DNA of 64,000 nucleotides, taken from NCBI GenBank assembly GCA_016284295.1, contig JAEEOP010000033.1:7735-71734 (forward strand), written 5' to 3'. Below the pieces are notes generated by a model. That model saw only the letters and a program-made list of their open reading frames with translations. It did no database searches and had not been told where the DNA came from. The translations under genes and the position numbers were made by a program. Each line of letters opens with the position of its first letter. Position 1 is the stretch's first letter. Source of the stretch: Methanomassiliicoccaceae archaeon. GTDB taxonomy: Archaea; Thermoplasmatota; Thermoplasmata; Methanomassiliicoccales; Methanomethylophilaceae. This document shows, one piece after another, positions 1-59,842 of this stretch.

Positions 1-114
1 CGGATAGTCATAGGAGAGGACGGTGTCGAACGGCACGATGAAAAGGGACACGAGCGCGAGGATCGCTGAGATGACCAGTAGATAGTCCTTCTTCACGTGC
101 TCTAAGATGTCCAT
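1..114 (-). CDS. Partial (runs off window) membrane protein, possibly SLC13/citrate-type anion permease
   Basis: ATG at 114 gives an open frame MDILEHVKKDYLLVISAILALVSLFIVPFDTVLSYDYP with a hydrophobic N-terminal helix; family assignment is tentative. Confidence 0.45.
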   Translation of the reverse strand, partial: MDILEHVKKDYLLVISAILALVSLFIVPFDTVLSYDYP

Positions 115-246
115 ACCGTGCTGAACGACAGGTGCCTAATAACTATATCGCTGGTAGCACACATCAGCCATCACTTGTAAGGTTTTTTAATAATCAAAGA
201 ATACGAGCAATCAGAACGGAAGGTAAAGGTCTGGGGGAGTTCTGAA

Positions 247-1920
247 TTGGACGATCTTGTAATCGCATCAGCCATTTTGACGCTACTTGCAGGCATAGGG
301 GTTTTCCTTACAGCCTGCATCATGCTGAGTTCCAATTTGGAGTCCATGAGCAGCGGACGTCTCAAGAAGATGTTCACGAAGGCTTCCAAGAGCAAACTGT
401 ATGGTGTCGGTATCGGTGCCGTAGGTACGGCGGCCATCCAGAGTTCCGGAGCCATGACCGTCATGGTCATCGGATTCGTCAACGCGGGGATCATGGCCCT
501 GCCTCTGGCGGCCACGATCATCTACGGAGCGAACATCGGTACTACGATAACCGCCCAGCTTGCCGCCATCGGTATGTTCAGCGGCAATTCGATATCCCTT
601 GCCCTCATCTTCTCCGCATTCGCCGGTATCGGCGCCTTCGCGATGACCTTCGCCAAGAATGATTCCACCAAGCTCTGGGCCGGTGTCATCACAGGTTTCG
701 GTCTGCTTTTCGTTGGACTCACCATGATGGCATCCTCCATGTCGGAGTTCGCGGAGCTGCCTGAGGTCGTCGAGTTCCTCTCTTCGATAGACAATATCAT
801 CCTTCTCCTGCTGATCGGTATCGGTCTGACCGCGCTCGTCCAGAGCTCGTCGGTCGTGACCACGTTGGCCATCACCATGGTGGTCACCGGGCTCATCAAT
901 CTCGAGCAGGGTATCTATCTGACATTGGGATCCAACATCGGATCGTGTGTCGTCGCCATCATTGCCGGATTCTCCGGAGGGCTCAACGCCAAGAGGACAT
1001 CCGTCATACATCTTCTCTTCAACGTGTTCGGAGTGGTGATATTCGTCATCGCCGGATTCGTCATGGGAACGTTCGGGGTCCAGTACTCGGGTCTCTTCGA
1101 ATCCCTGTTCCCCGGAGCGCCGTCCACCCAGCTGGCCATGTTCCACACGTTCTTCAACGTGGTGACCGTCATAATCATGCTCCCGCTGACCAACAAGCTG
1201 ATCAACCTCGTCGTCAGGCTGGTCCCCGACAAAGGGGAGCCCGAGGAGACCGAGTTCATTCCAAAGCTCCACTTCCTGAACGAGTACATGCTCAGGACCC
1301 CGCCTCTTGCGGTCCAGCAGGTGATGAAAGAGGTACTCAACATGTCCGTCATAGCCATGGACAACTACCGCAAGGCATGCCACATGATCCGCACTATGGA
1401 CTTCTCGAAGGAGAACGAATTCTGCAACAACGAATAGGAGCTGAACTTCCTCAACAAGGAGATCGCCAGGTTCCTGGTCAAGCTGTCAGAGAACAAGCTC
1501 AGCGAGAGGGACCAGATATACATCTCCACGGTGTACCACACCATCTCGGACATGGAGCGCATAGGAGATTATTCCAAGAACATCATGGAGTACGCCAAGA
1601 AGATGGATGAGCTCGGATTCAAGTTCTCAGAGGTCGCACTCCAGGAGACCATGGTCATGGAGGGGCTGATCGATCAGCTCTACGACAAGATCGAGCAGGC
1701 ATACAGCGAATCCAACGAGACCGCTTTGGAGCAGGCGTACGACATCGAGGAGAACATAGACGTCGTGACCGAGGAGATGGCGGAGAACCATGTCAAGAGG
1801 CTCAACGAAGGCGTGTGCACCCTGGATGTCGGTTCGGAGTTCCTTGCGATGACCTCGGATTCCGAGAGGGTGGCGGACCACCTGATCAACATGGGCAAGG
1901 TAATCAGGCTGTACTCCTGA
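247..1920 (+). CDS. Na/Pi cotransporter family protein (NptA-like) with C-terminal PhoU domains; one in-frame TAG at 1435-1437 (probable Pyl)
   Basis: QSSGAMTV and QSSSVVT cotransporter repeats plus GANIGTT/GSNIG motifs; track ORFs 247..1437 and 1531..1920 are in one frame separated only by a TAG (NNE-TAG-ELNFLNKEIARFL...SDMERIGDYSKNI). Confidence 0.88.
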
Positions 1921-2286
1921 TCGGACGTACGCGCTCTTCAGGCGTTTCCCGTTCCTGACCCTGCCGTAGAACATCGCGACCATCACGCAGTCGTCGGGCG
2001 TCAGGTCCCCGAGCTTGTAGTTGAATCTGCTCTTGGAAAGCTTGAACGTGCGGTCGGTCCTGACCGTGGACGTCTTGTCGAGCATCACCTCATATGGATC
2101 GACCAGTTTGATATCCGTCTCCGGATGGTGGCCGTGGGATGTGACCATGAATACTATCAGGTCGTCCCCCTTCTTGTCCAGCACGATGACCGGGCGGTTC
2201 TTCGCTCCCGTGAGGTTGTCGAAGTCGACCTTCGCGTTCCAGACCTCCATCGGTCTCGGCACGGAGGGGTCGCTCTTCAGCTTCAC
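1627..2286 (-). CDS. PemK/MazF-like protein (core ~1920-2286) with an open-frame tail antisense to the Na/Pi gene
   Basis: EVWNAKVDFDNLTGAKNRPVIVL..VFMVTS..STVRTDR pattern typical of the PemK/MazF fold; GTG start 4 nt after the ubiA-family stop. Confidence 0.65.
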   Translation of the reverse strand: MKLKSDPSVPRPMEVWNAKVDFDNLTGAKNRPVIVLDKKGDDLIVFMVTSHGHHPETDIKLVDPYEVMLDKTSTVRTDRTFKLSKSRFNYKLGDLTPDDCVMVAMFYGRVRNGKRLKSAYVRSGVQPDYLAHVDQVVRHPLGIRGHRKELRTDIQGAHAFVEPLDMVLRHLLGHDVYVLLDVVRLLQSGLVGFAVCLLDLVVELIDQPLHDHGLLECDL

Positions 2287-9859: not shown

Positions 9860-11143
9860 TCATCCGCGGTTCAGGATCGAATCGATGGCCGCAATAGTCG
9901 TCTCCTCTATCCCACACTGTTCTGCGTACTGCCGCCAATCCCCCACAACCCGTCCGGTCTTCTGAAGCACATTCCTGCAGAAGCGTCCGCTCAATCCTAT
10001 GGACTTCCCGAATGACAGGAGATCATCCTCGGTGATGCCTTCGGATTTGCCGCAGACTGTCATCTGATGGCCGCGTAGCCATCTGTTGCCAGGGTTGTAG
10101 GCGAAGGTCAGGTCATACGCCGGCGCAAGGTCCCATACACCATCCCTGTCCATGATGAAGGATATGTTCTTCACATGGTCGTCGCAGTTCATGGCCCCGA
10201 CGTTGAACACCGTCCTTCTGTAGATCTCCTCCATCCCGCTCCTGTGAATCCCCAATCTCCTGGCGACGGATGCGCAGGTCTCGTATCCGCATAGGCACGG
10301 CTCATTGTAGTCGTAATGTCCGATAGCACCTAGCGTCTGCACGAACAGCTTCTTCGCGCCTTCGCGGTCGAAACGCCTGGTCATGAAGTGGGACATCCCG
10401 TCCTTCTTCAATATCCTGCATTCGCTCATATCGATCCCGGCATCCTTGGCCATGAGATGATACGCATATTCGATGAGGGTGTACTGTTTGGGATCCTTCT
10501 CCCCGTGGTCCCCGTTACCCCTGACCTCATCGAACTTGACGAGCCAATGATCCGATCCCGGGGCGGCAAGGGTCTGACCCGACCTGATCTCGCCGGTCTC
10601 CTCATTCAATGCGATCACGGCCTTCGCCCTGGCACCCCCGGCGGATGAGCCGATCTCCAGCATCTGCGCCATCGTGATCCGGTCGATGTCGTATGAGGCG
10701 CTTTCCTTACCGGACAGCACCATCGACGCCAGTTCTGTCAGTTTGGTCACATCGACTTCCGAATCCGGGAAATCCATGTCGGCGGCGGGCACATACTCCA
10801 GGGCTCCCATCCCGCGTCTTCCGGTGTAGCTAAGTCTTTCCAACGGCGACATGCTCCCGACCGGTCTCCCGTTCTGCTTCAGCCAGAGGTCTATGACCGC
10901 ATTGCCGAACCTGTCCGGAAGGGAATCCGCCACAAGCCCAGGAAGGCCGTGGAAGGATGCTGAATTCCCGAGTGCGGGAAATGCGTAGACCCTGTCGGAC
11001 AGAGGCATCATGAGCGGTGCGGGCTCGATGCCACTGCCGATGAAATCCCTGTCGTATTCGAACGTGGGGACGGGATCATCCTCACCCTGATGCAGTATGC
11101 CTATCCTCCTGCCCCACAGATGGACCTCGACGGTGCTGATCAT
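9860..11143 (-). CDS. hipA: HipA-family toxin (Ser/Thr kinase) with N-terminal coupling domain
   Basis: EVHLWGRRIG, DSLPDRFGN, SSAGGARAKA, WLVKFD, FMTRRFDR, NCDDHVKNISF, LAPAYDL. Confidence 0.92.
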   Translation of the reverse strand: MISTVEVHLWGRRIGILHQGEDDPVPTFEYDRDFIGSGIEPAPLMMPLSDRVYAFPALGNSASFHGLPGLVADSLPDRFGNAVIDLWLKQNGRPVGSMSPLERLSYTGRRGMGALEYVPAADMDFPDSEVDVTKLTELASMVLSGKESASYDIDRITMAQMLEIGSSAGGARAKAVIALNEETGEIRSGQTLAAPGSDHWLVKFDEVRGNGDHGEKDPKQYTLIEYAYHLMAKDAGIDMSECRILKKDGMSHFMTRRFDREGAKKLFVQTLGAIGHYDYNEPCLCGYETCASVARRLGIHRSGMEEIYRRTVFNVGAMNCDDHVKNISFIMDRDGVWDLAPAYDLTFAYNPGNRWLRGHQMTVCGKSEGITEDDLLSFGKSIGLSGRFCRNVLQKTGRVVGDWRQYAEQCGIEETTIAAIDSILNRG

Positions 11144-11484
11144 TCCTCATCTCCCCATTTCCATTGCCTGGTCTTGGTCGTTCTCTTCCTGGCGCGCTGT
11201 CTAGGTTTCGTGTTCTCGACGAACGCGGACGGGCGGATGGACTGATCGGGGATCAGTATCTCGAAATTGCCCTGCAGGTCCAAAGCTTCCATAAGTTTCA
11301 ACAGGTTGGAGAGGCCTATGTCATAACCGTTCTCGAACCTCTTGATGGTACTGAGCGACACCATCGATTTCTCGGCAAGATCGGTTTGTGTCATGGGATA
11401 GGATATCCTGTACTGTTTGAACCTTTTCGATAATTCGGATGCGATCTCTGTCGGGTCAGAGGTTGTGGTGATTTTCATTGACAT
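11140..11484 (-). CDS. XRE/HTH antitoxin-like regulator (HipB-like)
   Basis: MTQTDLAEKSMVSLSTIKRFENG HTH; ATGA overlap with the hipA start. Confidence 0.85.
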   Translation of the reverse strand: MSMKITTTSDPTEIASELSKRFKQYRISYPMTQTDLAEKSMVSLSTIKRFENGYDIGLSNLLKLMEALDLQGNFEILIPDQSIRPSAFVENTKPRQRARKRTTKTRQWKWGDEE

Positions 11485-11795
11485 TCAATAGATTAAATGT
11501 GAGATATTAAAGTATTTTTATAGGGTTAATAGCTCATATTTTAGATATTATTTTTTTGAAAAGGCAATAAATCCCGATTCCGGGAGATATGATTGTAAGA
11601 AAGTCGTGCGACCGATGTCATGTATGGGTCCGCCGCTGCGATCCGCCCAGCGTAAACATTTATCTCCGCGGTGCGGATTTGCTAGTGAATTGTGACCAGA
11701 TACCATCCATGGAATTCGGTACTGGACACATTGTTTTCTAACTCCAATAGTAACACGAATTAGTAATAAATATTACCAAACTGAATGCTAAAACC

Positions 11796-13004
11796 ATGCA
11801 ATCCAAAGCTGTTCTAGCAATCGCAGTTGCGGTAGTTGTCATCATAGTGGGCATCGGCGCATTCATGTTCCTGAACAACAACGGCAACAATGATTCCCCG
11901 ACCGGAGAGGTGACCGACGCTCTCGGCCGCACCATCAAGATCCCGTCCGACCTGGACAACGGTATCGTGACGATAGGCAGCACCGGGCCTCTCAGATTCG
12001 CTTCCATCTTCGATGTGTATGACAGGATCATCGAGGTCGACAAGGGCGACATAACCGACAACAAGAACGGAAGGGCGTACTCCTATGCATATCCCTACGA
12101 CAAGCTCGATGTCGAGACCCAATCCCATGCCGACAACAAGCTGGAATCGGCGACGGTGGAATCTATAGGGAAGAAGAATCCCAGCCTGGTCATAACCTCC
12201 GCCGGTGTGTGGAACAACTATGCCGAGAACTTCCAGACCCTGGCCAAGAAGGTCACCGTTATGGTGCTAAAGGATCAGCAGATGCAGTACATGACCGAGG
12301 ACGGCAAGCTCGCTGAATTCATCACGTTCAACATCGAGCTCCTTGGAAAGGTCCTGAAGAAGGAGTCCCGTGCCACGGAGGTCATCGACGGCATCAACGG
12401 AATAATCGCAGACATAGCGTCTCTGAAGGGGACATCGGACAGGAGCATCTACGTCGCAGGCGTCACCATCAGCGGCAGCAACACGCTGAACACGACCTTC
12501 CCCAGATACATCCCCTTCGACCTCACCGGTTCCAAGAACGCATACGCCGGCGGGTCCACCGACAGTAAAGTGGTCCTGAGCCCCGAGGAGGTGGCGAAGA
12601 TGGACATCGACATGATCATCATCGACCCGTCATCCTCGGACAAGGTGAAGGAGCAGGACAGCCAGGCGGTCCTATCGTACCTCTACGGTCTCGATGAGAG
12701 TGAGAGGCCGGACATGTACATCACCGTGCCCATAGTGTGGGACAGTATCAACTACGACTGCGCCCTGGCCAGCGCATTTGTTGTGACGTACCTCAATTAC
12801 CAGGGGTCGCTGACCCTCGAGCAGCTGGAGCAGAAGGTCGTGAACGTTTTCAAGACGTTCTACGGAACCCACGGTGATAATGTCCTGAAGGACATGAAGA
12901 CCTTCTTTGAGGGCAAATCCTCATCGAACGGACAGGAGATGCCGATCTTCCAGGAAGTAGAGGTCGTCAAGAACGGCGACATGTACGCGCTTGCAGCCGC
13001 ATGA
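11796..13004 (+). CDS. ABC transporter substrate-binding protein (iron-chelate/cobalamin, Peripla_BP_2 type)
   Basis: N-terminal membrane anchor, VTDALGRTIKIP, DMIIID; first gene of an SBP-permease-ATPase operon. Confidence 0.85.
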   Translation: MQSKAVLAIAVAVVVIIVGIGAFMFLNNNGNNDSPTGEVTDALGRTIKIPSDLDNGIVTIGSTGPLRFASIFDVYDRIIEVDKGDITDNKNGRAYSYAYPYDKLDVETQSHADNKLESATVESIGKKNPSLVITSAGVWNNYAENFQTLAKKVTVMVLKDQQMQYMTEDGKLAEFITFNIELLGKVLKKESRATEVIDGINGIIADIASLKGTSDRSIYVAGVTISGSNTLNTTFPRYIPFDLTGSKNAYAGGSTDSKVVLSPEEVAKMDIDMIIIDPSSSDKVKEQDSQAVLSYLYGLDESERPDMYITVPIVWDSINYDCALASAFVVTYLNYQGSLTLEQLEQKVVNVFKTFYGTHGDNVLKDMKTFFEGKSSSNGQEMPIFQEVEVVKNGDMYALAAA

Positions 13005-13035
13005 CAACTTCGATAAAGGGATTGATAGGGTGCTG

Positions 13036-14109
13036 ATGGACAGGACGGGGACGGAAGACAGTACCAAGGATGGATATCTGAGGTACGCCCGCAGCAAATG
13101 GCTGTTCCTCATCGGAACGGCCGTTCTGCTGGCGATCCTTTCGGTATACACGATAGGTCTCGGTGCCACCGATCTCTCGTACTTGGACATCCTGAGATAC
13201 CTGTTCTTCCCGGACGATTCGTGGGACAGCACGGTGGTCTGGGATCTCCGCTTCAAGATGATCGTGGCGGCCATATTCGCCGGAGCGGCACTCGGTATCG
13301 CGGGAACCGTGATGCAGAGCATCCTGAGGAACCCGCTGGCCTCCCCGTTCACCTTAGGCCTGTCGAACGCTTCGGCGTTCGGCGCGGCACTGGCCATCCT
13401 CTTCATGGAGGGCGGTACCATCGTGGGGCAGACGGCCGCCTATGCGAACGTCAACAACCCCATCCTTGTCACCGTCATGGCGTTCGCCATGGCCATGATC
13501 GCCACCGGCATCATGCTCCTCCTTGTCAAGATGACCGAATGCACCCCGGAATCCATCGTCTTGGCAGGGTTGGCGATCAGCTCGATATTCTCCGCGGGAC
13601 TGGCGTTCCTGCAATACATGGCAAACGATGTCGCATTGTCCGCCATCGTTTTCTGGCAGTTCGGAAGCCTGAGCAAGGTAAGCTGGTCCAACCTGTACCT
13701 GGTAGGTGCCGTGCTGGTCCTCGTCGCACTGTACTTCATCCACAAGCGCTGGGATTACAACGCACTGGAGTCCGGGGAGGACGTGGCCGCCGGCGTGGGT
13801 GTGAACGTTGAGAGGACCCGCATCATCGGATTGGTCCTGTCCGCGGTTCTGACAGCCGTTGTGGTATCGTTCATGGGCGTGATCGGGTTCATAGGGCTGA
13901 TCGGCCCCCATATAGTCAAGAGGCTGATCGGCAACGACAGCAGGTACGTCCTGATAGGCTCCATGCTGATCGGGGCGCTTGTCCTGCTGTTGGCGTACAT
14001 AATAGGGTCGTACGCATTCTACACGGTCATACCGGTGGGCATAATCACATCGGCGATAGGCGGACCCCTGTTCATCCTCATCCTCATAGGGAGGCGCAGA
14101 AGAAGATGA
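13036..14109 (+). CDS. FecCD/BtuC-family ABC permease
   Basis: LRNPLASPFTLG, GEDVAAGVGVNV (EAA-like), GVIGFIGLIGPHIVKRLIG, IPVGIITSAIGGP. Confidence 0.92.
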   Translation: MDRTGTEDSTKDGYLRYARSKWLFLIGTAVLLAILSVYTIGLGATDLSYLDILRYLFFPDDSWDSTVVWDLRFKMIVAAIFAGAALGIAGTVMQSILRNPLASPFTLGLSNASAFGAALAILFMEGGTIVGQTAAYANVNNPILVTVMAFAMAMIATGIMLLLVKMTECTPESIVLAGLAISSIFSAGLAFLQYMANDVALSAIVFWQFGSLSKVSWSNLYLVGAVLVLVALYFIHKRWDYNALESGEDVAAGVGVNVERTRIIGLVLSAVLTAVVVSFMGVIGFIGLIGPHIVKRLIGNDSRYVLIGSMLIGALVLLLAYIIGSYAFYTVIPVGIITSAIGGPLFILILIGRRRRR

Positions 14110-15062: not shown

Positions 15063-15933
15063 AGAGATCTCCGGAAAGGCAGGTCTGGATGCCGATCTGA
15101 CCGTGATGCTCTGCGACAGCCTGGTGCAGATGGGCCTGCTGGACGGGGTGGAAGGAGGATACGTGGATTCGGACGCTGCATCGGCATATCTCTGCCGCGA
15201 TTCAGACACCTATCAGGGCAACACGCTCAACGGGATGTTCGACAACATGGATGAATGGATGCACTTGGAGGAACGCCTCGTAATGGGTCCAAGATATGTC
15301 CACAGGGAGGAGATGTTCGGGGAGAAGTGGCTCCGGGCGATAGCCGAGTCGTGTCTCGATGGGAGCGTCGGTGCAATCGTCGACGAGATAGATTCCCGCG
15401 TGGATCTGTCAGGATACAGGACCCTTCTCGATCTCGGAGGAGGTCACGGTCTGCACTCGATAGGCCTGGTCCACAGGCATCCGAATCTGGAGGCAACCGT
15501 GTTCGATGTGCCGATGATGTGCCCGATAGCCATGAAGAACTCGGAGAGGTACGGCGTGCCCCTGCGTACGATCGCAGGCGACTTCTATAAGGACGATCTC
15601 GGTGGCCCTTACGATGTGGTGTACTCATCGTTCAATCTTTCCACATCGGACATCAGGATGGCCGACCGTGTCCACGGGGCGGTGGCAGACGGAGGCCTTC
15701 TGATTCTCCGCCGTCATCTGCCAGCGACATCGCAGGACAGCATCCGGAACTTGGAGTGGAGCCTCAGGACCTGGGACGGGAAGGGCAAGAAGAACTACGG
15801 GGGCTCATGGCTACCCACGGCGGAGGCCTACATCGACAAACTGATCGGTCTGGGCATGTCGATGCTCGTGAGGGAACAGATGGATGGATCATCCGAACTG
15901 GTCATCATGACGAAAAGTCCGATACATCCGTAA
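14866..15933 (+). CDS. SAM-dependent methyltransferase (Methyltransf_2 with dimerisation domain)
   Basis: LLDLGGGHG motif I, VFDVP, IAGDFYKD; N-terminal wHTH dimerisation region; start may be 14896. Confidence 0.85.
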   Translation: MTIMMMENDTMAEDPERLMHPVRNDRDAVIRGKFGGYMTGFANAMILRTSFRLGLFDIAASPVSAKEISGKAGLDADLTVMLCDSLVQMGLLDGVEGGYVDSDAASAYLCRDSDTYQGNTLNGMFDNMDEWMHLEERLVMGPRYVHREEMFGEKWLRAIAESCLDGSVGAIVDEIDSRVDLSGYRTLLDLGGGHGLHSIGLVHRHPNLEATVFDVPMMCPIAMKNSERYGVPLRTIAGDFYKDDLGGPYDVVYSSFNLSTSDIRMADRVHGAVADGGLLILRRHLPATSQDSIRNLEWSLRTWDGKGKKNYGGSWLPTAEAYIDKLIGLGMSMLVREQMDGSSELVIMTKSPIHP

Positions 15934-15967: not shown

Positions 15968-16351
15968 ATGGATTTCTGCCCCAGATGCGGTAGGTACCTC
16001 AAGGATGAGGAGTTCCAATGCCCGGAATGCGGTAACATTGTGCGTGAGCTGCCCATCCGCGATCAGGTAGCGCCCGAGATCAACATGATGTACTCCGGGA
16101 ACAGGGCGGGCAGATTGGACATCAGAGACATATTCAGGGACAAGGTGTTCTACATCGTGTTCGCGATAGGTTTCGCGGCTTCGTTCTCCGTCACCTACTT
16201 CTGGAGGTTCTCGGTGTTCCTGTTCCTCATCCCGCTGCTGATGCCGGTGGGGAGGCCGAGCATAAGCCTGGGGCTCATACTCGGCATAATAGTCGGTTCC
16301 CTGATCGGCTTCGTCACGAAGACCTATCTCGTGGCCTCTTCGATAGTGTGA
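15968..16351 (+). CDS. Zinc-ribbon membrane protein
   Basis: CPRCG..CPECG followed by hydrophobic helices. Confidence 0.65.
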   Translation: MDFCPRCGRYLKDEEFQCPECGNIVRELPIRDQVAPEINMMYSGNRAGRLDIRDIFRDKVFYIVFAIGFAASFSVTYFWRFSVFLFLIPLLMPVGRPSISLGLILGIIVGSLIGFVTKTYLVASSIV

Positions 16352-16928
16352 AGTCGTAGAGTTTGTCCATGTTCTCGCCGGTCTTGGCCGAGACCTCCTG
16401 GACGGGCTTTCCGGGGAAGTTCTGTTCGAACCACGCTTTGATGTGCTCTATCTGACCGGGCTTCGCCAGGTCCATCTTGTTGATGAGGATCAGGTCCGAC
16501 CCGGACATCTGCATCTTGTAGAACGCCTCCTTCTTCTCCAGGAGCGTGTCGAACCTCTCCACGTCGGCAAGTCCGATGATCGAACACGAATCCTCGTCGA
16601 TCATGGCGTTGTGCACGAACTGCTTCACCTTGTGGGGGAGCGCCAGACCGGTGGGCTCGATGATGAGCACATCGGGGTCCAGGTCCCTCTTGATGTTCCT
16701 GAGCGTGGCCTGGAGGGTGCCGACCAGGGTGCAGCAGATGCACCCCTCGGGCAGCTCCGTCGCGCTGTACCCTTCGGCTTTGATCGTCGCTCCGTCGACC
16801 CCGACCTCTCCGGATTCGTTGACGATGATAGCCGTCTTCAGTCCCTTGCCGGTATAGACCTTGGCCAGGTCCAGGAGCATGGTGGTCTTTCCGCTTCCGA
16901 GGAATCCTCCGATTATGAATACATCCAT
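16314..16928 (-). CDS. CobW/HypB/UreG-family GTPase (metallochaperone)
   Basis: GGFLGSGKTT, NESGEVGVDG, GCICC, IEPTG, NKMD. Confidence 0.9.
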   Translation of the reverse strand: MDVFIIGGFLGSGKTTMLLDLAKVYTGKGLKTAIIVNESGEVGVDGATIKAEGYSATELPEGCICCTLVGTLQATLRNIKRDLDPDVLIIEPTGLALPHKVKQFVHNAMIDEDSCSIIGLADVERFDTLLEKKEAFYKMQMSGSDLILINKMDLAKPGQIEHIKAWFEQNFPGKPVQEVSAKTGENMDKLYDFTLSKRPRDRSS

Positions 16929-16937
16929 CGTACCGCC

Positions 16938-18554
16938 TCAGAACGACAGCCTGAGGTCGTCGTACTTGTACACTTTCTGGGGGCAGCTGAACTGGCATCT
17001 GTAGCATGCGGTACCGAGGCAGTTCTTGGTCTTGACCACGATCTTCTTGTCCTCCTGGACGGTGAGCGCGTGCTCGGGGCACTCCTTCTCGCACTTCTTG
17101 CACCCGGTGCAGCCTTCCATGTATCCGGTGAGCTCGGTACCGATGTCGTGGAGGATGTACAGTCCCCTCTCTCCCAGGTCGGGAATGTCACGCTGTACGA
17201 TTCTGTGGACCGTGGGCACGCCTTTCGGCCTGGGGAGCTCCTGGATGCCTGCGATGGCGTTGTTCCTGTTGTACATCTCCATGCTCATGCCCTCGTCACA
17301 CACGGCCAGCTCCTGGGTGTAGATCTGCTCGAAGATCTTGTCGCCTGCGAACATGATGTGGTTGGCCCTGATTCCGTTGGCGATGTCCTGGAGGGTGTCC
17401 AGGAGCTCGGGGTTCCTGAGGATGTCGGTGGCCATGGCCAGCGAGGTGTTACCGTACTGGTAGATGGTGTTGCATGACGGCGGCAGGAGACCGACCTCCC
17501 TTGCCTTCACAGCATCCACATAGGTTCCGGATGCCCCGGCCATGTACATGATGTCGAGGTCGCTGAACTTGATGCCCGCATGCTCCAGGAGGGTGAAGTG
17601 TCCCGCCCTCATCGCTCCGATCGCCTTCATGGCCTCGGAGATGTCATGCGAGTCGATGTAGATGCCGTCCTGCAGGTGGAGCAGTCCGTCGGAGGTCGTG
17701 AGCTTCCCCTTCTTCCAGAGGTGGCAGTCCAGTGCCGCGGCGACGGCGGCGATGACTCCGGTACCGGTGATACCGGTGGCCTTGCCGCTCATCGGCCCTT
17801 CGGGGGTGACGGACTCCAGGCCGAAGTCACATCTGGCCCCGTTCTCGGGGATGATGTCGTCGTTCAGGACCTTGCATATGTATTGGAAATCATATTCGAG
17901 ATCGGATATGGCGCCGGGTCCAGCGAGCATACCGTATTTGATGGACTGCCCTTCCATGGCCGGTCCCGCCGCCGCGGATCCCGTGTAGATGTCGTCCCCT
18001 ATCTTCAGGGCCATCTCGGCGTTGGTACCGTAATCCGTGACGAGGCAGTTCTCCTTCTGCTCGAGGAATCCGCTCTTGTACATCATGGCCAGCGCATCGG
18101 CGCCGATCTCGTGCCTGATCGCCGGGGGAACGCAGAGCTCGCATCCATCCCTGACATTCAGTCCGACATCCACTGCCGAGAAGACCCCGGCATCCCTTTT
18201 CTGCGCCACTATGCCTCTGGCCTTGTGCGCGTTCTCGCCCGCGAAGGCCAGGTCGTCCACCGGGATCCCTTGGAAGAGCGACAGCTGTATCGGGTTACCG
18301 CAGATGCTGACCCTCTCGACCTTGTTCAGGTCCACGCCGAGGGTGGCAATGAGCTTGTTGACGGTGTCGATCAGGATCTTGTGCGCCGTGTCCGTCCCTG
18401 CGTTTATGCAGAACGTTAGATGATCCATGATGTTCGCTCCGGGCAGCGGATGACATTCCGTGACGGAGGTTGATAGTATCTTGCCGTTCGAGAGGTCGAC
18501 GGCGTGCCCTCTTGTACCGCTCGTACCGATATCCAAAGAAATTCCTATACTCAT
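16938..18554 (-). CDS. ramA: Methyltransferase corrinoid protein reductive activase (RamA/RamM, ASKHA ATPase with C-terminal ferredoxin)
   Basis: SLDIGTSG, DYGTNAEMAL, SAAAGPAMEGQ, C-terminal CTGCKKCEKECP and CLGTACYRC; AGGTGG RBS before ATG at 18554. Confidence 0.92.
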   Translation of the reverse strand: MSIGISLDIGTSGTRGHAVDLSNGKILSTSVTECHPLPGANIMDHLTFCINAGTDTAHKILIDTVNKLIATLGVDLNKVERVSICGNPIQLSLFQGIPVDDLAFAGENAHKARGIVAQKRDAGVFSAVDVGLNVRDGCELCVPPAIRHEIGADALAMMYKSGFLEQKENCLVTDYGTNAEMALKIGDDIYTGSAAAGPAMEGQSIKYGMLAGPGAISDLEYDFQYICKVLNDDIIPENGARCDFGLESVTPEGPMSGKATGITGTGVIAAVAAALDCHLWKKGKLTTSDGLLHLQDGIYIDSHDISEAMKAIGAMRAGHFTLLEHAGIKFSDLDIMYMAGASGTYVDAVKAREVGLLPPSCNTIYQYGNTSLAMATDILRNPELLDTLQDIANGIRANHIMFAGDKIFEQIYTQELAVCDEGMSMEMYNRNNAIAGIQELPRPKGVPTVHRIVQRDIPDLGERGLYILHDIGTELTGYMEGCTGCKKCEKECPEHALTVQEDKKIVVKTKNCLGTACYRCQFSCPQKVYKYDDLRLSF

Positions 18555-18602: not shown

Positions 18603-18625
18603 CTAACATAAAAATGGTATGTTAG
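18603..18625. promoter_or_regulatory. Inverted repeat in ramA-mtaC intergenic region
   Basis: CTAACATA-N7-TATGTTAG perfect 8-bp arms. Confidence 0.5.
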
Positions 18626-18715
18626 ACAAGGCAACTTTTACCTGATGTTTAGTCAATTTTTTTGTTGTCATTGTCAATACTATATAAAACTTATATCCAA
18701 AGTATTTAAAGTTAC

Positions 18716-18777
18716 TGGGATATTTCATCCAACCAACCATTCCATTAAATAGTTTAGAAATACATCCAACTAACCAT
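18716..18777. promoter_or_regulatory. Operator-like repeats upstream of mtaC
   Basis: CATCCAACYAACCAT at 18726-18740 and 18763-18777; the first copy lies within TGGGAT-N5-ATCCAA. Confidence 0.55.
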
Positions 18778-18820: not shown

Positions 18821-19600
18821 ATGATAGACTACTCTAAAGTAGACTTTTCTAAGATCCTCAAGCGTTACGACGTTGAGGGTCAGAACGAAATGACACCTGA
18901 GTCCGTGGCCAAGGCAATGCTGCCGAAGGACCCCGTCCTGTACAAGGTCGCCGAGTGCGTCCTGTACATGAAGTTCAAGGACGTGGGACCCGCGACCGCC
19001 GAGGCGCTGAAGACGAAAGATGCTCTTGATATCATCAACAACGGACTCGTCGTCGGAATGGAGTGTGTCGCGAAACTGTACGCAGAGCACATCTACTACC
19101 TGCCCGAGATCATGATGGCCGCAAAGACTATGGAGATCGGAATCGCACTCGCAGAGAAGCAGATCCCCGGTGGAAGGACGACAAAGGGAACCGTCGTCAT
19201 GCATGCCGCCGAAGGAGACCCCCACGACATCGGTAAGAACATCGCCGCCGTCATGATGAGGTCTTCCGGATACACCGTCGTCGACATGGGAAAGGATGTC
19301 GCAGTGGACGATGTCGTCGCCAAGGTGAAGGAGATCAAGCCCTTCATGGTGACCGGAACCGCGCTCATGACGACCACCATGACAGCATTCCCCCGCGCCG
19401 CAGCGAAGCTCGTCGCAGCCGGAATCAACATCCCGTTCATGGCAGCCGGAGGAGCAGTCAACAGGGACTTCTCGGAGTCCTTCGACCTCGGAATCTATTC
19501 CGAGAAGGCGCCTCAGACCCCGCCCATTGCGGACAAGATCCTTGAGGGATACGACTGGAGAAAGATCAGGGAAGAGTGGGACCACATCGTAGGAGAGTGA
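18821..19600 (+). CDS. mtaC: Methanol corrinoid protein
   Basis: EGDPHDIGKNI B12-binding motif (DxHxxG), GTALMTTT, AAGGAV; AGGAGG RBS. Confidence 0.93.
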   Translation: MIDYSKVDFSKILKRYDVEGQNEMTPESVAKAMLPKDPVLYKVAECVLYMKFKDVGPATAEALKTKDALDIINNGLVVGMECVAKLYAEHIYYLPEIMMAAKTMEIGIALAEKQIPGGRTTKGTVVMHAAEGDPHDIGKNIAAVMMRSSGYTVVDMGKDVAVDDVVAKVKEIKPFMVTGTALMTTTMTAFPRAAAKLVAAGINIPFMAAGGAVNRDFSESFDLGIYSEKAPQTPPIADKILEGYDWRKIREEWDHIVGE

Positions 19601-19605
19601 TTGTT

Positions 19606-20997
19606 ATGGCAAAGTACACAAAGATGGCATACGGCAGTGCGGAAGAGATGGTATTCGGACACGCGAAGGAGCCCGTCTCTTACGGTTTCGGAATCAAGGT
19701 CGGAGCAGGCAGGGTCATCCCCGAGCTGAACTACGGACCCAGGCCCGGATCCGAGGCGACACCCGAGAAACTCAGGAAGGAGTACGTCGACTACATCTCC
19801 AAGGATGTCCTCAACAGATGCGTCACCCTCGGATTCCCCGACGTCCAGCTGGAGACCGAGTGGATCTCCCAGATGGGAGACCCCAAGATGGCCACACCCG
19901 TGGTCGAGGGCCAGAAGGCAATCTGCGAGAAGTACTACGAGGAGTACGGACTGAACTGCGCCGTGAGGCAGACAATCCCCGACCAGCGTGAGGCGGAAGA
20001 GGGATACAGGCCCGGAATGGGCGGAAAGCACAGCTACCCCGAGCACCTGTTCCAGTGTGCTGAGGTCGCCTGTGAGAACGGAGCGGATGTCCTCTCGTGC
20101 GAGACCCTCGGAGGAAAGGAGCTCGGAGACTACGCGACCACGAACGGAGACATCGTCGCATTCCTGTTCGGAATCGGATACCTCGGTTCCATCGACATGG
20201 AGTACGTCTGGAAGCAGTTCGTCGATATCGCCAAGAAGAACAAGGTCATCGCCGGAGGAGACACCAACTGTTCCGGAGCCAACACCTCGATGTTCATGGC
20301 CGGCGGAATGCTGGACCAGGATGTCCAGAGGACCTACTCCGCGGTCACCCGTGCGATCTCCGCCGCAAGGACCCTTGTGGCATGGGAGCAGGGTGCATCC
20401 GGACCCGACAAGGACTGCGGTTACGAGGGACCCATCTGTAAGGCTATCGCAGGAAAGCCCTGCGCACAGGAGGGAAAGAACTGTCAGTGCGCCCACGCCG
20501 ATCTTCAGGGTAACCTGATGGCACAGGTCTGCGACCTCTGGTCCAACGAGTCCATCGAGTACCACCCCGAGTTCGGAGGAACCTCCGTCCAGTGCTGGAT
20601 GGGAAGCCTCGGATACGAGGTGGCCCTGATGAACACCGCCATCCAGACCGGCAAGCAGAAGGACCTCAGAGACCTCTACATGATCACCGACCGTGAGAGG
20701 GGACCCGAGGGACACATCCTCGCATACGACAACGCATATAAGATCGGAGAGGCTATCGTCTCTGAGGGCAACAACTACTACCTCAGGGCCAAGGCCGCCG
20801 GACTCACCGCCGCGAAGCTCATCAAGGACCACAACGACTCCAAGGAGCTCCAGCTGACCAGGAAGCAGAGGGAAGTCCTCGACTCTATCATCAAGGACCT
20901 CGAAGCTCTTCCGGATGATGAGGACAAGTTCTTCGAGTACTGCTGCAAGAAGTACGCGGACGTGCCCAACTTCAACCTGAAGAACTACGGTCTTTGA
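19606..20997 (+). CDS. mtaB: Methanol:corrinoid methyltransferase
   Basis: MAYGSAEEMVFGHAKEPVSYG, ENGADVLSCETLGGKE, GDTNCSGANT, GPDKDCGYEG, WSNESIEYHPEFGG. Confidence 0.95.
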   Translation: MAKYTKMAYGSAEEMVFGHAKEPVSYGFGIKVGAGRVIPELNYGPRPGSEATPEKLRKEYVDYISKDVLNRCVTLGFPDVQLETEWISQMGDPKMATPVVEGQKAICEKYYEEYGLNCAVRQTIPDQREAEEGYRPGMGGKHSYPEHLFQCAEVACENGADVLSCETLGGKELGDYATTNGDIVAFLFGIGYLGSIDMEYVWKQFVDIAKKNKVIAGGDTNCSGANTSMFMAGGMLDQDVQRTYSAVTRAISAARTLVAWEQGASGPDKDCGYEGPICKAIAGKPCAQEGKNCQCAHADLQGNLMAQVCDLWSNESIEYHPEFGGTSVQCWMGSLGYEVALMNTAIQTGKQKDLRDLYMITDRERGPEGHILAYDNAYKIGEAIVSEGNNYYLRAKAAGLTAAKLIKDHNDSKELQLTRKQREVLDSIIKDLEALPDDEDKFFEYCCKKYADVPNFNLKNYGL

Positions 20998-25219: not shown

Positions 25220-25352
25220 AACACATTTGGGGCCCACGCCCCGTTTCATCCATCCACATGGTATCCTCCTGGATACTGGCTATGTTTTATCCTTGAAGAT
25301 TCGGACCGCATCAGTCTTATAATGTCGGATGCCGATTCGAATACTGATCCAA

Positions 25353-25700
25353 ATGACCGATTGCAAAGTATGCGTGGATGCGGGTGTCTGCAAGATGAAG
25401 ACCATCATCACGGCCACTACCAATGACATGGGCCTGGTCGATCTCCATATCAAGAGCGATTGCCCGAACATCTTGAAGATGTCGTGGAGGATGGAGCCTG
25501 TCAGCCCGTATGCGGAGGTCGAGTCCGAGTTCTACAAGTCCGAGGTATACAAGTGGGCCCAGGAGACCCCTATACCCCATACGGCATGCCCTGTGCCTTC
25601 AGCGATCATCAAAGCAATAGAGTACGCCGGGGATCTAGGCCTGAAGCGCGACGTGTCCATCAGGTTCATTGACGACGATTCAGAGGCCGGGATGGACTGA
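25353..25700 (+). CDS. DUF6951-family small Cys-containing protein
   Basis: VDAGVCKMKTIITA, SDCPNI, HTACPVPSAIIKAIE, RDVSIRF. Confidence 0.7.
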   Translation: MTDCKVCVDAGVCKMKTIITATTNDMGLVDLHIKSDCPNILKMSWRMEPVSPYAEVESEFYKSEVYKWAQETPIPHTACPVPSAIIKAIEYAGDLGLKRDVSIRFIDDDSEAGMD

Positions 25701-26102
25701 TCAGATCGGCAGCTTGGTGCAGTTAGGCACCACTTTGTAGTTGTACTCGCAGAAGTAGACCTCTATATTCTGCCCCTTGTACTTCTCGAAGACCAGATGC
25801 CAGTTCTGGACGGGTATGTTGCCGCATATGACGGCGTTCACCTTCTTCCCCTCCGATAGCCTGTCGCCGATGAAGGCCTCCAACTCCCTGGGGAAGGTTA
25901 TCCTGTTGTCGGCCAGGAACTCGCGGTCCACCTTCAGGATTATGGAGTCAGGCTCCTGCCTTGCGATTTCGTCCAGGACTATCTGGATGAGAGTCTCCAT
26001 CCCTTCGGTCTTTATTCCGGATATGGCGGTGGGCTCCTTGGTGGCAACGAATCCTGCCACCAGCGGTCTTGGGTCGGTCTCGGGCGGTGTGGCGAAAACC
26101 AT
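25701..26102 (-). CDS. Hypothetical protein, tandem paralogue B
   Basis: 133 aa; collinear similarity to 26112..26513 (PPETDPRP, RLSEGK, G.IPV..W, CTKL). Confidence 0.75.
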   Translation of the reverse strand: MVFATPPETDPRPLVAGFVATKEPTAISGIKTEGMETLIQIVLDEIARQEPDSIILKVDREFLADNRITFPRELEAFIGDRLSEGKKVNAVICGNIPVQNWHLVFEKYKGQNIEVYFCEYNYKVVPNCTKLPI

Positions 26103-26111: not shown

Positions 26112-26513
26112 TCATATGGTGAGCTTGGTGCAAAGCGGCACCTGACGGCAGGCCGCGGCGCAGTAGAAGACCTGCAGGTCCCTTCCTTTGAACTTCTGCA
26201 GCTCCAGGTTCCATCCGGAGACGGGAATGTCCCCTGCGATGATGAGGTTCAGCCTCTTCCCTTCGGACAGCCTCTTCTCAATGTAACCGGAGAAGTCCCT
26301 TGCGAACGTGATGTCCTCGTCGGACATCAGGTCCCTGTCCATTATGACTATGTTGGATCCGGGCTGCTGTCTGCTCAGCTCGTCGACGACGATTTGCATC
26401 AGGGCTTCCGTGCCTTCGGCCACAAGGCCTGCAAGGGCCTTGGCGTCATCATTGGATATGAATTCGGATACCTTCGGACGCGGGTCCGACTCAGGGGGAC
26501 AGGAGTTGACCAT
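26112..26513 (-). CDS. Hypothetical protein, tandem paralogue A
   Basis: 133 aa; same length and shared motifs as 25701..26102. Confidence 0.75.
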   Translation of the reverse strand: MVNSCPPESDPRPKVSEFISNDDAKALAGLVAEGTEALMQIVVDELSRQQPGSNIVIMDRDLMSDEDITFARDFSGYIEKRLSEGKRLNLIIAGDIPVSGWNLELQKFKGRDLQVFYCAAACRQVPLCTKLTI

Positions 26514-35089: not shown

Positions 35090-35890
35090 TCATTGGGTGA
35101 TGCTGACCCTCTTGGGCAGCACGTACAGGTCCCCTTCGGAATCAATACCGACGGAGGCCTCGACGCCGTACACGTCCTTGATCAGTTCCGGGGTGATGAC
35201 CTTCTTCGGCTCTCCGACGGCCACCAGCTCCCCTTTCTTCATGATCACGCACAGGTCGCAGTACCTCGCCATCAGGGAGATGTCGTGCTCCGCGACAAGG
35301 ATCGTCATGTCCTTCTTGACCATGGCCTTCAGGTACTCCATGACCTCGAGCTTGAACTTCATGTCAAGGTGGGACGTGGGCTCGTCGACCAGCATCAACC
35401 TGGGCTCCTGCACGTAGGCCTTGGCGATCAGCACACGCTGCTGCTCTCCGGAGGAGAGCATGTTGAGGGCGCGGTCCTGAAGATGATGGACACCGAACTT
35501 CTCCAGCGTCTCCTCCACGAGGGTCTCGTCCTCGTCGGTCTCCCACCACATGTTCTGCAGATAGGGATATCTTCCGAGCATGACGGTCTCGAACACGGTC
35601 AGTCCGAAGGATGCGGTCATCTCCGCCGGCACGTTGGACACCAGCTTGGCGACCTCCGTGGGGGTCTTCGGTATGACCGATTCCCCGTCGATGAGGATGT
35701 CCCCGCTGGTGAGCATGTGCATCTTGTTGATGCATCTCATCATCGTGGTCTTCCCGCAGCCGTTGGGCCCGATGAGGCCTACGAGCTTTCCCGATGGGAT
35801 CGAGAAGCTTACATCCCTGTCGGCATGGTAGCCGTTTTCGTATATCTTATCCAAATGACGGATCTCTAATAACGGAACCTCATCATCCAT
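35090..35890 (-). CDS. ABC transporter ATP-binding protein (FecE/BtuD-like)
   Basis: GPNGCGKTT, LSSGEQQR, LVDEPTSHLD, AEHD. Confidence 0.92.
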   Translation of the reverse strand: MDDEVPLLEIRHLDKIYENGYHADRDVSFSIPSGKLVGLIGPNGCGKTTMMRCINKMHMLTSGDILIDGESVIPKTPTEVAKLVSNVPAEMTASFGLTVFETVMLGRYPYLQNMWWETDEDETLVEETLEKFGVHHLQDRALNMLSSGEQQRVLIAKAYVQEPRLMLVDEPTSHLDMKFKLEVMEYLKAMVKKDMTILVAEHDISLMARYCDLCVIMKKGELVAVGEPKKVITPELIKDVYGVEASVGIDSEGDLYVLPKRVSITQ

Positions 35891-36995
35891 TGTACATCTT
35901 CCCCCTTATGAACAGAAGGTAGGCGAACACAGGCACGCCTATCAAAGTAGTAATGGCTCCCACAGGGAGCTCGTTTCCAGGAATTATCATTCTCGCCGCC
36001 AGGTCTGCGGCCATCATCAGCACGCCTCCCAGGGCTATCGATCCCGGGAGCACCAGGCGGTGGTCGCCTCCGAACAGCATACGGCACAGGTGGGGCACCA
36101 CCAGTCCGACGAAACCGATGATACCGCAGAACGCGACGCAGAAGGCCGTCATTATGGACGCCAGGGTAAGGATCATGGCGTTGAACCTCTTCACGTTCAG
36201 GCCCATCTGCCTCGCCTGTCCCTCTCCCAGAAGCACCAGGTTCATCTCCTTGGCGTACCTGAAGATGAACAGGCTGATTATGATCACAGGGATCAGGATG
36301 AAGATCGCCTTCTCCCAGGTGATGTTAGAGAAGGATCCGAACAGCCACAGCATGACGTTGGAGACCTTGTTCCCCGAGAACACGATCATTATTGTCTGGG
36401 CGGCACCGAACACCAGTCCGATGACGACTCCCGACAGGACGTAGGCGTTGGTCGTTCCTCCGGCGCGGAGGGCCAGGGCCATGGTGAGCAGGAACGCGAC
36501 CAGTCCTCCCACGATCGCCGCCACGGCGATCAGGTAGATCGAGTATGCGGACATCAGTCCGAAGAACGTGAAGTCGAATGCGATCACGGCTATCGCCAGG
36601 GTGCCCGCTCCCGAGGACACTCCCATGATGTACGGGTCCACGAGCGGGTTCCTGATGACGGCCTGATAGGCCGCACCGGCTACGGACAGTCCCAATCCGA
36701 CGGCCAGGGCCGCTATCGCCCTGGGCGTGCGCGAGCTGTAGATCAGGATCTCGTCCGGGCTCATGACCGAGCCGTCCTTCCCTATGGCCGAGAACAGGCT
36801 CGTCAGCGCCGTTATCGGATCCACGATCTTCGTGGGTCCGATGCATAGCATCGCCAGGAACATTATCACGGAGAGGACGGTCCCCAGGAGCACTATCATC
36901 TTCATCCTGTGCCTCTTCCTCTGCATGTGGGTATCGCCGCCTCCGTCCAGGAAGCGCTTGGCGGATGCCCTGAAGCTCCTTTCCTCGTCAGACAT
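35883..36995 (-). CDS. FecCD/BtuC-family permease
   Basis: IRNPLVDPYIMGVSSGA, GEGQARQMG, GFVGLVVPHLCR, ELPVGAIT. Confidence 0.92.
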   Translation of the reverse strand: MSDEERSFRASAKRFLDGGGDTHMQRKRHRMKMIVLLGTVLSVIMFLAMLCIGPTKIVDPITALTSLFSAIGKDGSVMSPDEILIYSSRTPRAIAALAVGLGLSVAGAAYQAVIRNPLVDPYIMGVSSGAGTLAIAVIAFDFTFFGLMSAYSIYLIAVAAIVGGLVAFLLTMALALRAGGTTNAYVLSGVVIGLVFGAAQTIMIVFSGNKVSNVMLWLFGSFSNITWEKAIFILIPVIIISLFIFRYAKEMNLVLLGEGQARQMGLNVKRFNAMILTLASIMTAFCVAFCGIIGFVGLVVPHLCRMLFGGDHRLVLPGSIALGGVLMMAADLAARMIIPGNELPVGAITTLIGVPVFAYLLFIRGKMYNG

Positions 36996-41392: not shown

Positions 41393-41578
41393 ATTGGATA
41401 CTTTATCCAATAACCATTTTCATACTTAAAAAAGTTGGAAAGTTGGACTAATTTGGTTGTTTCACCAGTCTGGCTATAGGGGCGAGCATGTTCATCGGCA
41501 ACGTATTACAGATGAAGATAGTCAAGTGAATTGTGGCCATCTTTATAATATAGGATGAATATTACATATCATCCAACT
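41393..41578. promoter_or_regulatory. Operator-like palindromes in divergent promoter
   Basis: ATTGGATA-CTT-TATCCAAT (41393-41411), AAGTTGGA twice (41432-41447), GGATGA-N10-TCATCC(AACTAA) (41553-41580). Confidence 0.55.
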
Positions 41579-41666
41579 AATGGCTCTGCGGGTGTTCCTT
41601 ACCTAAAGGATATCCGAAGAGTCAGATGAGCTTGGGTTCACTAAAACATCTGAATAAGGTGGAAAT

Positions 41667-59096: not shown

Positions 59097-59105
59097 TCCC
59101 GGGGA

Positions 59106-59525
59106 TCAGAAATCAGATTCTACCAGACCCACTAACTCCCTCAGCTTCTCGGCCACCGCATGGCCCTTCTCGGTCATGACTATCACATTGTTGTTCGTCT
59201 TGCCCGTGGTGTAGATGCGGATGATGCCGTAATCCTCGAGGTCCTTGATCTTGTCCAGGATGGTGCCGGTCCTGGCGACGTCGTTGTAGATGTCGCTCTT
59301 GATAACGGGGGACATCTTGTCCAGATAGATTATGAGGGAGAGCATGTGCTTGCCCTCGAGCTTATGGATGACTGTGCCCCTGTCCCCGCCGTTGCGCCTC
59401 CTGTCCTTGATATATTTCTTGACCTCCTCCGGCAGCTCGTCGTACGAATGGGGCTCCTTGTTGACGTTCTTACGGGTGTCGAGACTCTCCCCTATCTTGA
59501 CGCTGACTGTCTTGGTTTCCTCCAT
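59106..59525 (-). CDS. Winged-helix DNA-binding protein
   Basis: LEGKHMLSLIIYL..KSDIYNDV..IKDLEDYGII..MTEKGHAVA. Confidence 0.75.
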   Translation of the reverse strand: MEETKTVSVKIGESLDTRKNVNKEPHSYDELPEEVKKYIKDRRRNGGDRGTVIHKLEGKHMLSLIIYLDKMSPVIKSDIYNDVARTGTILDKIKDLEDYGIIRIYTTGKTNNNVIVMTEKGHAVAEKLRELVGLVESDF

Positions 59526-59626
59526 GTTGTCATCCCTCCATGGAAATGCGGCAAAGACGATCCGGAGCCGGAACGGCGGTGTCGATCATGTGGGAAGAGG
59601 CCTTTCCGTTGTCCGAATTGTCTGGA

Positions 59627-59702
59627 CATGAAATATGGACATATTTCATGCAACATTTCATGAACATGCATTATAATCATTGCATATAATAGATATTTCA
59701 TG
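59627..59702. promoter_or_regulatory. Operator-like palindrome with extra half-sites
   Basis: CATGAAATAT-GGAC-ATATTTCATG (59627-59650); ATTTCATG again at 59655 and ATATTTCATG at 59693. Confidence 0.55.
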
Positions 59703-59842
59703 CTCTTTGTACATGAATGTTTCAGCACGGACAATGAAGAACCCAGCCAGACAGTTCTATCTGGATGGTCCGATGCGGTGTGGCAGGCCGACCGTCAGGT
59801 CCACGTTAAGTATTTATCAGACGATTATCTGTCAGATTTTGT

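Follow-up and report, generated by a model that had tools for sequence, protein, structure and literature searches.

The Methanomassiliicoccales are methyl-reducing methanogens of the human gut and rumen, of interest for the removal of trimethylamine from the gut and for the reduction of methane emissions. We know of no description so far of this order's regulators or cis-regulatory code. Here we analyze a 64-kb stretch of DNA (hereafter, the window) whose host belongs to the family Methanomethylophilaceae within it. The window contains two divergent promoter regions that concern us (Table 1). One lies between ramA, which encodes the reductive activase of corrinoid proteins, and mtaCB, which encodes the methanol corrinoid protein and its methyltransferase; the other separates an ATP-binding cassette (ABC) importer operon from the gene for a 331-aa protein. 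An inspection of the DNA letters alone (the sequence-only reading) had noted an operator-like palindrome in both regions and proposed that one regulator co-controls methanol methyl transfer and cofactor uptake, which was taken as independent support for a corrinoid substrate of the importer. We find that this palindrome, TGGAT-N5-ATCCA, spanning 15-19 bp, is a conserved cis-element shared by mtaCB and ABC-transporter promoters.

The two copies, TGGGAT-ATTTC-ATCCAA (18716-18732) and TTGGAT-ACTTT-ATCCAA (41394-41410), are the sole palindromes of this kind in the window. All strings reported earlier are present where they had been placed, namely TGGGATATTTCATCCAACCAACCAT at 18716-18740, ATCCAACTAACCAT at 18764-18777, TTGGATACTTTATCCAATAACCAT at 41394-41417, ATCCAACTAA at 41571-41580 and two minus-strand copies of TCCAACTT at 41432-41447. 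The region had been opened at 18603, ahead of the first string described, where only an unrelated and non-conserved inverted repeat is found. Allowing up to one mismatch, the pattern TKGGAT-N5-ATCCAA locates just these two sites in the window, corresponding to 4 strand-matches against 0.77 expected, and counts of at least 4 were obtained in 3 of 100 shuffles of the whole window. A position weight matrix (PWM) trained only on mtaC sites of other genomes scored the window sites at 14.5 and 14.0; the next non-coding match scored 8.1, and 0.06 matches of at least 14 are expected in the non-coding DNA of the window. The top score overall, 18.5, belongs to GATGGATGGATCATCCGAA (15879-15897), which is probably a chance match: it falls within coding sequence, at the 3' end of an O-methyltransferase-like open reading frame (ORF), and 45 nt before the TATA-like box of a zinc-ribbon gene at 15968.

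The shared element is real, in that it neither occurs at background frequency nor lacks conservation in orthologous promoters. Phylogenetic footprinting, which the sequence-only reading had called for, revealed both palindromes at fixed promoter positions in other Methanomassiliicoccales. For mtaC, the comparison covered 78 species-level loci (individual loci in this report carry L numbers), the nearest relatives of the window's MtaC being 93%-96% identical to it. Alignment of the ramA-mtaC intergenic region with those of five close relatives left few conserved blocks, the main one being TGGAY-N5-ATCCAWCCAWCCA directly upstream of TTAAATA. A stricter pattern, T[TG]GGA[TA]..[AT]TCC[AC]A, matched 0 of the 78 orthologous loci; the alignment and a relaxed pattern showed the conserved element. 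The strict palindrome TGGAY-N5-ATCCA is present at 26 of the 78 loci, always about -100 from the ATG, and ATCCATCC is found in 43 of the 78 promoters; the consensus over all loci reads TGGATATAACATCCATCC. The remainder of these loci (450 kb) contains only ~13 unique strict sites. Four of these lie in a conserved stretch of mtaB coding sequence, and the intergenic ones stand ahead of further mtaC paralogs or of a gene for an a,c-diamide synthase. In the window, 12 nt separate the end of the palindrome from the TATA box, and 13 of 18 scorable orthologs show precisely this distance; the palindrome is centered at about -51. In assembled metatranscriptome contigs of closely related strains, mtaC RNA begins at 18788 in three runs, which come from two studies; two further runs give 18798 and 18831. 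Contigs for ramA end at 18568, and none covers the intergenic core or the mtaC palindrome.

At the importer operon, the palindrome occupies a different position. We assembled 16 loci orthologous to that of the substrate-binding protein (SBP), with protein identities of 58%-80% (L079, L080, L082-L093), and compared their 14 non-identical promoters. The orthologs retain a TT(T)AAGTA TATA box with TGGAY-N5-WNCCA 13-16 nt downstream (for example, TGGATACAGAATCCA in L092, TGGATTTAGTATCCA in L093, TGGATATAATATCCA in L082 and TGGACGTTATAACCA in L079), and in 12 of the 14 promoters the best match to the mtaC-trained PWM falls at this conserved position (each p <= 0.055). The perfect 19-bp form, ATTGGAT-N5-ATCCAAT, is shared by the window, L092 and L093. 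Three runs yielded SBP RNA contigs that stop at 41400-41403 and show the fold-back artefacts typical of cDNA 5' ends. Since this end lies inside the palindrome, 25-26 nt from the center of the TATA box, the ABC-operon palindrome sits on the SBP transcription start.

A third class of target is found in the Methanoplasma lineage, where a gene whose 452-aa product has both a CbiA and a GATase_3 domain carries the palindrome between its TATA box and start codon. The palindrome is located at -19/-20 in 6 of 6 loci, with a TTAAAATA box 5-6 nt before it and the ATG 2-3 nt after it. This arrangement is that of a leaderless gene whose operator is placed between TATA box and start. A single-protein scan for this gene product extended to close relatives only. 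The protein exceeds the cobB/CobB cut-offs (491 and 488 bits) and is a tetrapyrrole a,c-diamide synthase, the corrinoid pathway being its most likely place; it could instead be the F430 enzyme CfbB, against whose model it scores 497 bits with a cut-off of 560 bits. In Methanoplasma this gene is divergent from a CobW-like GTPase, the window homolog of which is encoded at 16314-16928.

The site classes predict each other, as the PWM of either class recovers the other. Specifically, a reciprocal PWM trained only on SBP and diamide-synthase sites detected sites at -150 to -80 in 40 of 75 mtaC promoters versus 4 of 75 in an equal-sized control region, and scored the mtaC site of the window at 16.4. 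The palindrome is found at three class-specific positions relative to the TATA box; it is thus not a basal promoter element but a factor binding site. Its half-sites of 5+5 (up to 7+7), its one-helical-turn spacing and its AT-rich spacer would fit a dimeric helix-turn-helix (HTH) or winged-helix protein. Full-text literature searches returned no description of a TGGAT-N5-ATCCA motif. The element is a conserved operator with a candidate regulon, in an order without described ones, and it appears to link mtaCB with genes for cofactor uptake and synthesis.

Table 1. Features of the two divergent promoter regions and their genes in the window
Feature	Positions	Strand	Remarks
CobW-like (COG0523-type) GTPase	16314-16928	-	Downstream of ramA; Pfam cobW
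ramA, corrinoid protein reductive activase	16938-18554	-	Divergent from mtaC; Pfam RACo; NCBIfam TIGR04270, 712 bits
Inverted repeat CTAACATA-N7-TATGTTAG	18603-18625		ramA promoter region; not kept in L002-L004
mtaCB upstream palindrome CTGGGAT-ATTTC-ATCCAAC	18715-18733	.	Core TGGAY-N5-ATCCA; putative upstream activating site
Right half-site extension ATCCAACCAACCAT	18727-18740	+	ATCCATCCATCCA in relatives; from alignment
TATA box of mtaCB, ATTAAATA	18744-18751	+	TTAAATA conserved across relatives
Proximal box ATCCAACTAACCAT	18764-18777	+	Single ATCCA half-site between TATA box and RNA 5' end; putative function
mtaC, methanol corrinoid protein	18821-19600	+	Pfam B12-binding, B12-binding_2
mtaB, methanol:corrinoid methyltransferase	19606-20997	+	Pfam MtaB, E 2.8e-203; start taken at MAKYTKMAY
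ABC ATPase	35090-35890	-	Pfam ABC_tran
Second FecCD permease	35883-36995	-	Pfam FecCD
FecCD permease with ~640-aa N-terminal region of PQQ-like beta-propeller repeats	36988-39948	-	Pfam FecCD, PQQ_2, Beta-prop
SBP of ABC importer	39941-41359	-	Pfam Peripla_BP_2; start is the MVDNSWIK ATG at 41359, conserved in orthologs
ABC-operon operator ATTGGAT-ACTTT-ATCCAAT	41393-41411	.	Perfect 19-bp palindrome centered on SBP transcription start
TATA box of SBP/ABC operon, TTTTAAGTA	41423-41431	-	TT(T)AAGTA conserved in orthologs
Two TCCAACTT repeats	41432-41447	-	Just upstream of SBP TATA box, in the expected region of the TFB recognition element (BRE)
TATA-like box of divergent 331-aa gene, TTTATAAT	41542-41549	+	ATAAAGATGG (reverse strand) conserved with L092
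ATCCAACTAA, single half-site	41571-41580	+	~21 nt after TATA box of 331-aa gene
331-aa protein, N-terminally membrane-anchored	41667-42662	+	Divergent from ABC operon; two ~147-aa tandem repeats (ETYYFYINYGDN...GSPF twice)

The detail surrounding the palindromes fared less evenly. Both palindromes and their N5 spacer are conserved, whereas the AACCAT said to follow them is not consistently so. The combination ATCCAA-N1-3-AACCAT occurs three times in the window, each time within the mtaC or ABC promoter, but mtaC orthologs carry ATCCATCCATCCA in place of the trailing AACCAT, and in the SBP orthologs AACCAT adjoins the palindrome in 4 of 14 promoters, on the opposite side relative to the window. 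Downstream of the mtaC TATA box by 12 nt, CATCCAACTAAC is conserved in the window and L002-L004 and absent from L001 and L064; ATCCAACTAA on the mtaC side is likewise retained in the closest relatives only (L002-L004). Of the TCCAACTT pair, only the CCAAC beside the TATA box is kept (L092), and any role for these repeats at the SBP promoter is weakly supported. The position aligned to ATCCAACTAA ahead of the 331-aa gene reads ATCCAAT in L092 (two sequences compared), and an RNA contig at this gene reaches ~41587 in X35. L092 has an ortholog of the 331-aa protein in the corresponding place; the protein matched no family in Pfam or NCBIfam. None of the trailing AACCAT, the TCCAACTT pair or ATCCAACTAA is more than a lineage-specific addition.

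Several further features of the window and of related loci were noted. A pair of GTCAAT repeats, ~17 nt apart, adjoins a TATA-like box, CTATATAAAA, at 18652-18690, and reads TCAAT...TCAA(T/C)-ATTATTTAAAG in L002-L004; this pair could belong to the ramA-side promoter as an element in its own right. A small Cys-rich DUF6951 protein is encoded 4.3 kb downstream of mtaB (25329-25700, plus strand) and also near mtaC2 at 7 loci (among them L062:820-1158 and L075), and two paralogous 133-aa genes of no family adjoin it in the window (25701-26102 and 26112-26513). A 440-510-aa protein is always encoded divergently from mtaC2-type paralogs (L052:1220-2731, minus strand; L055, L058-L060, L062, L066 and L070), with more distant copies at L013, L017, L018, L022, L040, L046, L067 and L074 and no clear copy in the window. 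No Pfam family matches it, and it is distantly related to IS1634 transposases (NF033559, E 1e-17 to 1e-22, below cut-off). Its sequence identity follows species divergence, and the intergenic region between it and mtaC2 holds TGGAT/ATCCA repeats. This protein has the look of a transposase that was domesticated at a syntenic position, and it may be a candidate for the regulator. The fusion of a beta-propeller to the FecCD permease is unusual within this transporter class. Elsewhere, the window holds toxin-antitoxin genes, namely those for a HipA-like kinase with an XRE/HipB-type HTH partner (9860-11484, minus strand) and for a PemK/MazF-like protein (1627-2286, minus strand). A stretch at ~59100-62000, flanking the sole tRNA gene (59843-59915), contains ORFs with a third-position GC content of 0.32-0.52 versus ~0.78 elsewhere and may be an integrated foreign element.

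We propose that one dimeric transcription factor recognizes TGGAT-N5-ATCCA, that its output is set by the position of the site relative to the core promoter and that its signal is cofactor status, a reading to which we assign a probability of roughly 55%. A well-characterized archaeal system illustrates how such an arrangement can work. In Pyrococcus and Thermococcus, TrmBL1 acts through a palindrome, the Thermococcales glycolytic motif (TGM, TATCAC-N5-GTGATA); sites downstream of the TATA box block RNA polymerase recruitment, including at ABC-transporter operons, and sites upstream of BRE/TATA activate, such that a single factor has opposite outputs (PMC4706686). By this precedent, mtaCB would be activated and the ABC operon and the diamide synthase repressed. 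At the upstream site of mtaCB the factor would help recruit TBP (the TATA-binding protein) and TFB (transcription factor B), whereas at the ABC transcription start and at the diamide-synthase site it would block recruitment of RNA polymerase. The likeliest signal is the status of the cofactor, either the corrinoid or its metal. With cofactor sufficient, the corrinoid-dependent methanol methyltransferase would be made and cofactor acquisition shut off; with cofactor short, the acquisition genes would be on.

The earlier proposal of co-control by one regulator stands as far as the shared, conserved element is concerned. As the mtaC and ABC sites lie at different promoter positions, co-control is probably opposite and not parallel in direction. 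We infer from sequence that one protein binds all sites, in which direction it regulates and what it senses. The likeness to TrmBL1 and TGM includes the 6-N5-6 architecture of TTGGAT-N5-ATCCAA, which lengthens to 7-N5-7 in the ABC promoter, and the use of positions both upstream (mtaC) and downstream (SBP, diamide synthase) of the TATA box, from which output would follow by analogy. The half-sites TGGAT/ATCCA differ from TATCAC/GTGATA, and the motif is therefore not TGM and is analogous in layout only. Moreover, unlike for TrmBL1, no TrmB-family gene is linked to the present loci, and the order and pathway are different: TrmBL1 serves sugar metabolism, the present loci methylotrophic methanogenesis and the supply of cofactor.

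Control of mtaCB has precedents in Methanosarcina, where MsrA/B/D/E and MreA activate or repress mtaCB operons (PMC11218639, PMC3419521). Methanosarcina belongs to a different order, and in contrast to the Msr/MreA systems, mtaCB has no regulator gene next to it, either in the window or at the 78 related loci; it is adjoined by ramA, by a CobW-like GTPase, by a His-rich protein or by the IS1634-like protein, none of an HTH family. No TGGAT-N5-ATCCA site is reported for the Msr/MreA regulators in the searchable literature.

A number of points weigh against a single factor with position-dependent output. No gene for a DNA-binding regulator was found linked to the sites by Pfam and NCBIfam searches of ~50 window ORFs, among the neighbors of the SBP orthologs or by ORF clustering over 95 loci; the sole HTH proteins encountered, a HipB-type antitoxin and a TrpY-like protein, are both distant from the sites. 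Through steric hindrance, the upstream mtaC site might also act in repression, and in M. luminyensis, which belongs to another family of the order, mtaC transcripts showed no differential expression from one substrate to another (PMC5688252). The RNA 5' ends derive from assembled contigs rather than mapped transcription start sites and are good to about +/-10 nt, and p-values combined over orthologous promoters are overstated because these promoters are not phylogenetically independent. Finally, the flanks differ by class, with ATCCATCC at mtaC and the symmetric ATTGGAT..ATCCAAT at the ABC operon, so paralogous factors could be meant.

This last point leads to a rather unlikely alternative in which two or more paralogous regulators with similar half-sites govern separate regulons and the promoters are not co-regulated. 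One would read RTGGAT-N5-ATCCATCC at mtaCB and another the symmetric (A/G)TTGGAT-N5-ATCCAAT at the ABC operon and the diamide synthase. The flanking bases are indeed class-specific and conserved inside each class, and mtaC2-type promoters, with TGGAT/ATCCA pairs at N9 and N13 spacing, suggest a family of related sites. However, the classes have the same 5+5 core, N5 spacing and AT-rich spacer, the PWM of each class recovers the other with strong positional specificity, and the mtaC site of the window, with ATCCAAC, resembles the ABC type.

The nature of the signal raises the question of what the importer carries. The ABC operon has the parts of a BtuFCD-type system by Pfam domain, that is, a Peripla_BP_2 SBP, FecCD permeases and an ABC ATPase. 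At the NCBIfam level, the SBP scores 51 bits on the BtuF equivalog, with a cut-off of 234 bits, and the BtuC scores are 210-220 bits, with a cut-off of 334 bits. Among solved structures, the SBP comes closest to binders of iron, siderophores or heme, and BtuF ranks lower; the second FecCD permease is equally near to FhuB, BtuC and HmuU, and the operon's two FecCD permease genes differ from each other, a feature also of siderophore systems. Whether such a system imports corrinoids, heme or siderophores cannot be told from protein sequence. An adjoining "TP_methylase" gene encodes diphthine synthase and is not a cob gene. At L090, a URO-D gene (22-1062, plus strand) with the fold of MtaA/MtbA-type methylcobamide:coenzyme M methyltransferases lies directly upstream of the SBP ortholog on the same strand. 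This neighbor and the diamide-synthase sites are circumstantial evidence that fits a cofactor-related regulon. The corrinoid substrate favored by the sequence-only reading therefore finds circumstantial links in its support, but no support from the BtuF and BtuC cut-offs or the nearest solved SBPs.

In view of these relationships, the same element and kind of factor may respond instead to a metal (Co, Ni, Zn or Fe), with the ABC system importing a metal chelate, heme or siderophore as part of a metal-homeostasis regulon for metalloenzyme maturation. We regard this as unlikely, and slightly more so than separate paralogous factors. A COG0523-type, CobW-like GTPase is the standard divergent partner of mtaC across the order (25 loci, L005, L009, L024, L026 and L047 among them), usually followed by a ~225-aa His-rich protein of no family; in the clade of the window, ramA is inserted between the GTPase and the mtaC promoter, and the His-rich gene is missing. 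Members of COG0523 have been linked to metal homeostasis (PMC2770081), and with such neighbors a metal-responsive regulon is a live alternative. It also draws on the iron, siderophore and heme binders nearest to the SBP, on the two distinct FecCD permeases and on the diamide synthase, which scores highest on the model of the Ni enzyme CfbB. Against this, the most conserved target is the operon of a corrinoid protein, mtaCB, the diamide synthase passes the cobB/CobB cut-offs and fails that of CfbB, and one SBP ortholog adjoins an MtaA/MtbA-type gene, although none of these points is decisive.

Much less probable is that the palindrome is an RNA hairpin, akin to a leader or riboswitch, or the remnant of a transposon's terminal inverted repeats. 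The sequence is an inverted repeat, and mtaC2 paralogs, the promoters of which carry TGGAT/ATCCA repeats, always have a distant relative of IS1634-type transposases as their divergent neighbor. Yet the mtaC site lies upstream of the TATA box and outside RNA coverage, the SBP transcript starts mid-palindrome, and the half-sites are conserved as sequence rather than covarying. A scan of the whole window at Rfam gathering thresholds identified one tRNA only and no match to the cobalamin riboswitch. With the mtaC site untranscribed, the ABC site on the start and no Rfam match, a leader RNA or riboswitch is excluded. The repeats were also considered as ends of an insertion sequence and rejected, as no flanking inverted-repeat pairs surround the IS1634-like gene (L052, L058, L059 and L070).

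Chance likeness of short palindromes in AT-rich intergenic DNA is the least probable explanation: the core is short, the whole-window shuffle only moderately significant and the ABC site alone has a ~5% probability of occurring, but fixed positions conserved over dozens of species while flanks diverge, together with control regions and a second ABC promoter that lack the site, mean that phylogenetic footprinting effectively refutes it. That second promoter (11485-11795) precedes another Peripla_BP_2/FecCD operon (11796-14109, plus strand), and the absence of the palindrome from it indicates that the element is not general to such transporters or to AT-rich promoters. It contains ATCCATGGA at ~11704, with half-sites in reversed order and no spacer.

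The logic of a single factor responding to cofactor status, with cofactor-dependent shut-off of uptake and biosynthesis, would resemble that of the bacterial cobalamin riboswitch at btuFCD and cob genes; in contrast to the riboswitch, the element here is a palindrome in promoter DNA and not a structured leader RNA. We know of no B12 riboswitches in archaea. A "CBL-box", the candidate signal of a hypothetical archaeal B12 regulator upstream of B12-related genes, was reportedly described by Rodionov and coworkers in J Biol Chem in 2003, when the Methanomassiliicoccales were not yet known. We tentatively extend the proposal to a protein factor that senses corrinoid or cobalt and takes the place of B12 riboswitches throughout the order, turning mtaCB on and corrinoid uptake and biosynthesis off, while considering this broader version doubtful.

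The element provides an order-wide handle, and the 19-bp palindrome could serve as a probe to fish out the regulator. Both the predicted regulon, comprising mtaCB, the ABC importer and the tetrapyrrole amidase, and its opposite regulation are testable. If the signal is corrinoid status, the element would bear on how archaea control B12 acquisition without riboswitches and would point to an importer of community corrinoids. Should the corrinoid or cobalt reading prove true, the beta-propeller-fused FecCD system would be the corrinoid importer of gut and rumen methanogens.

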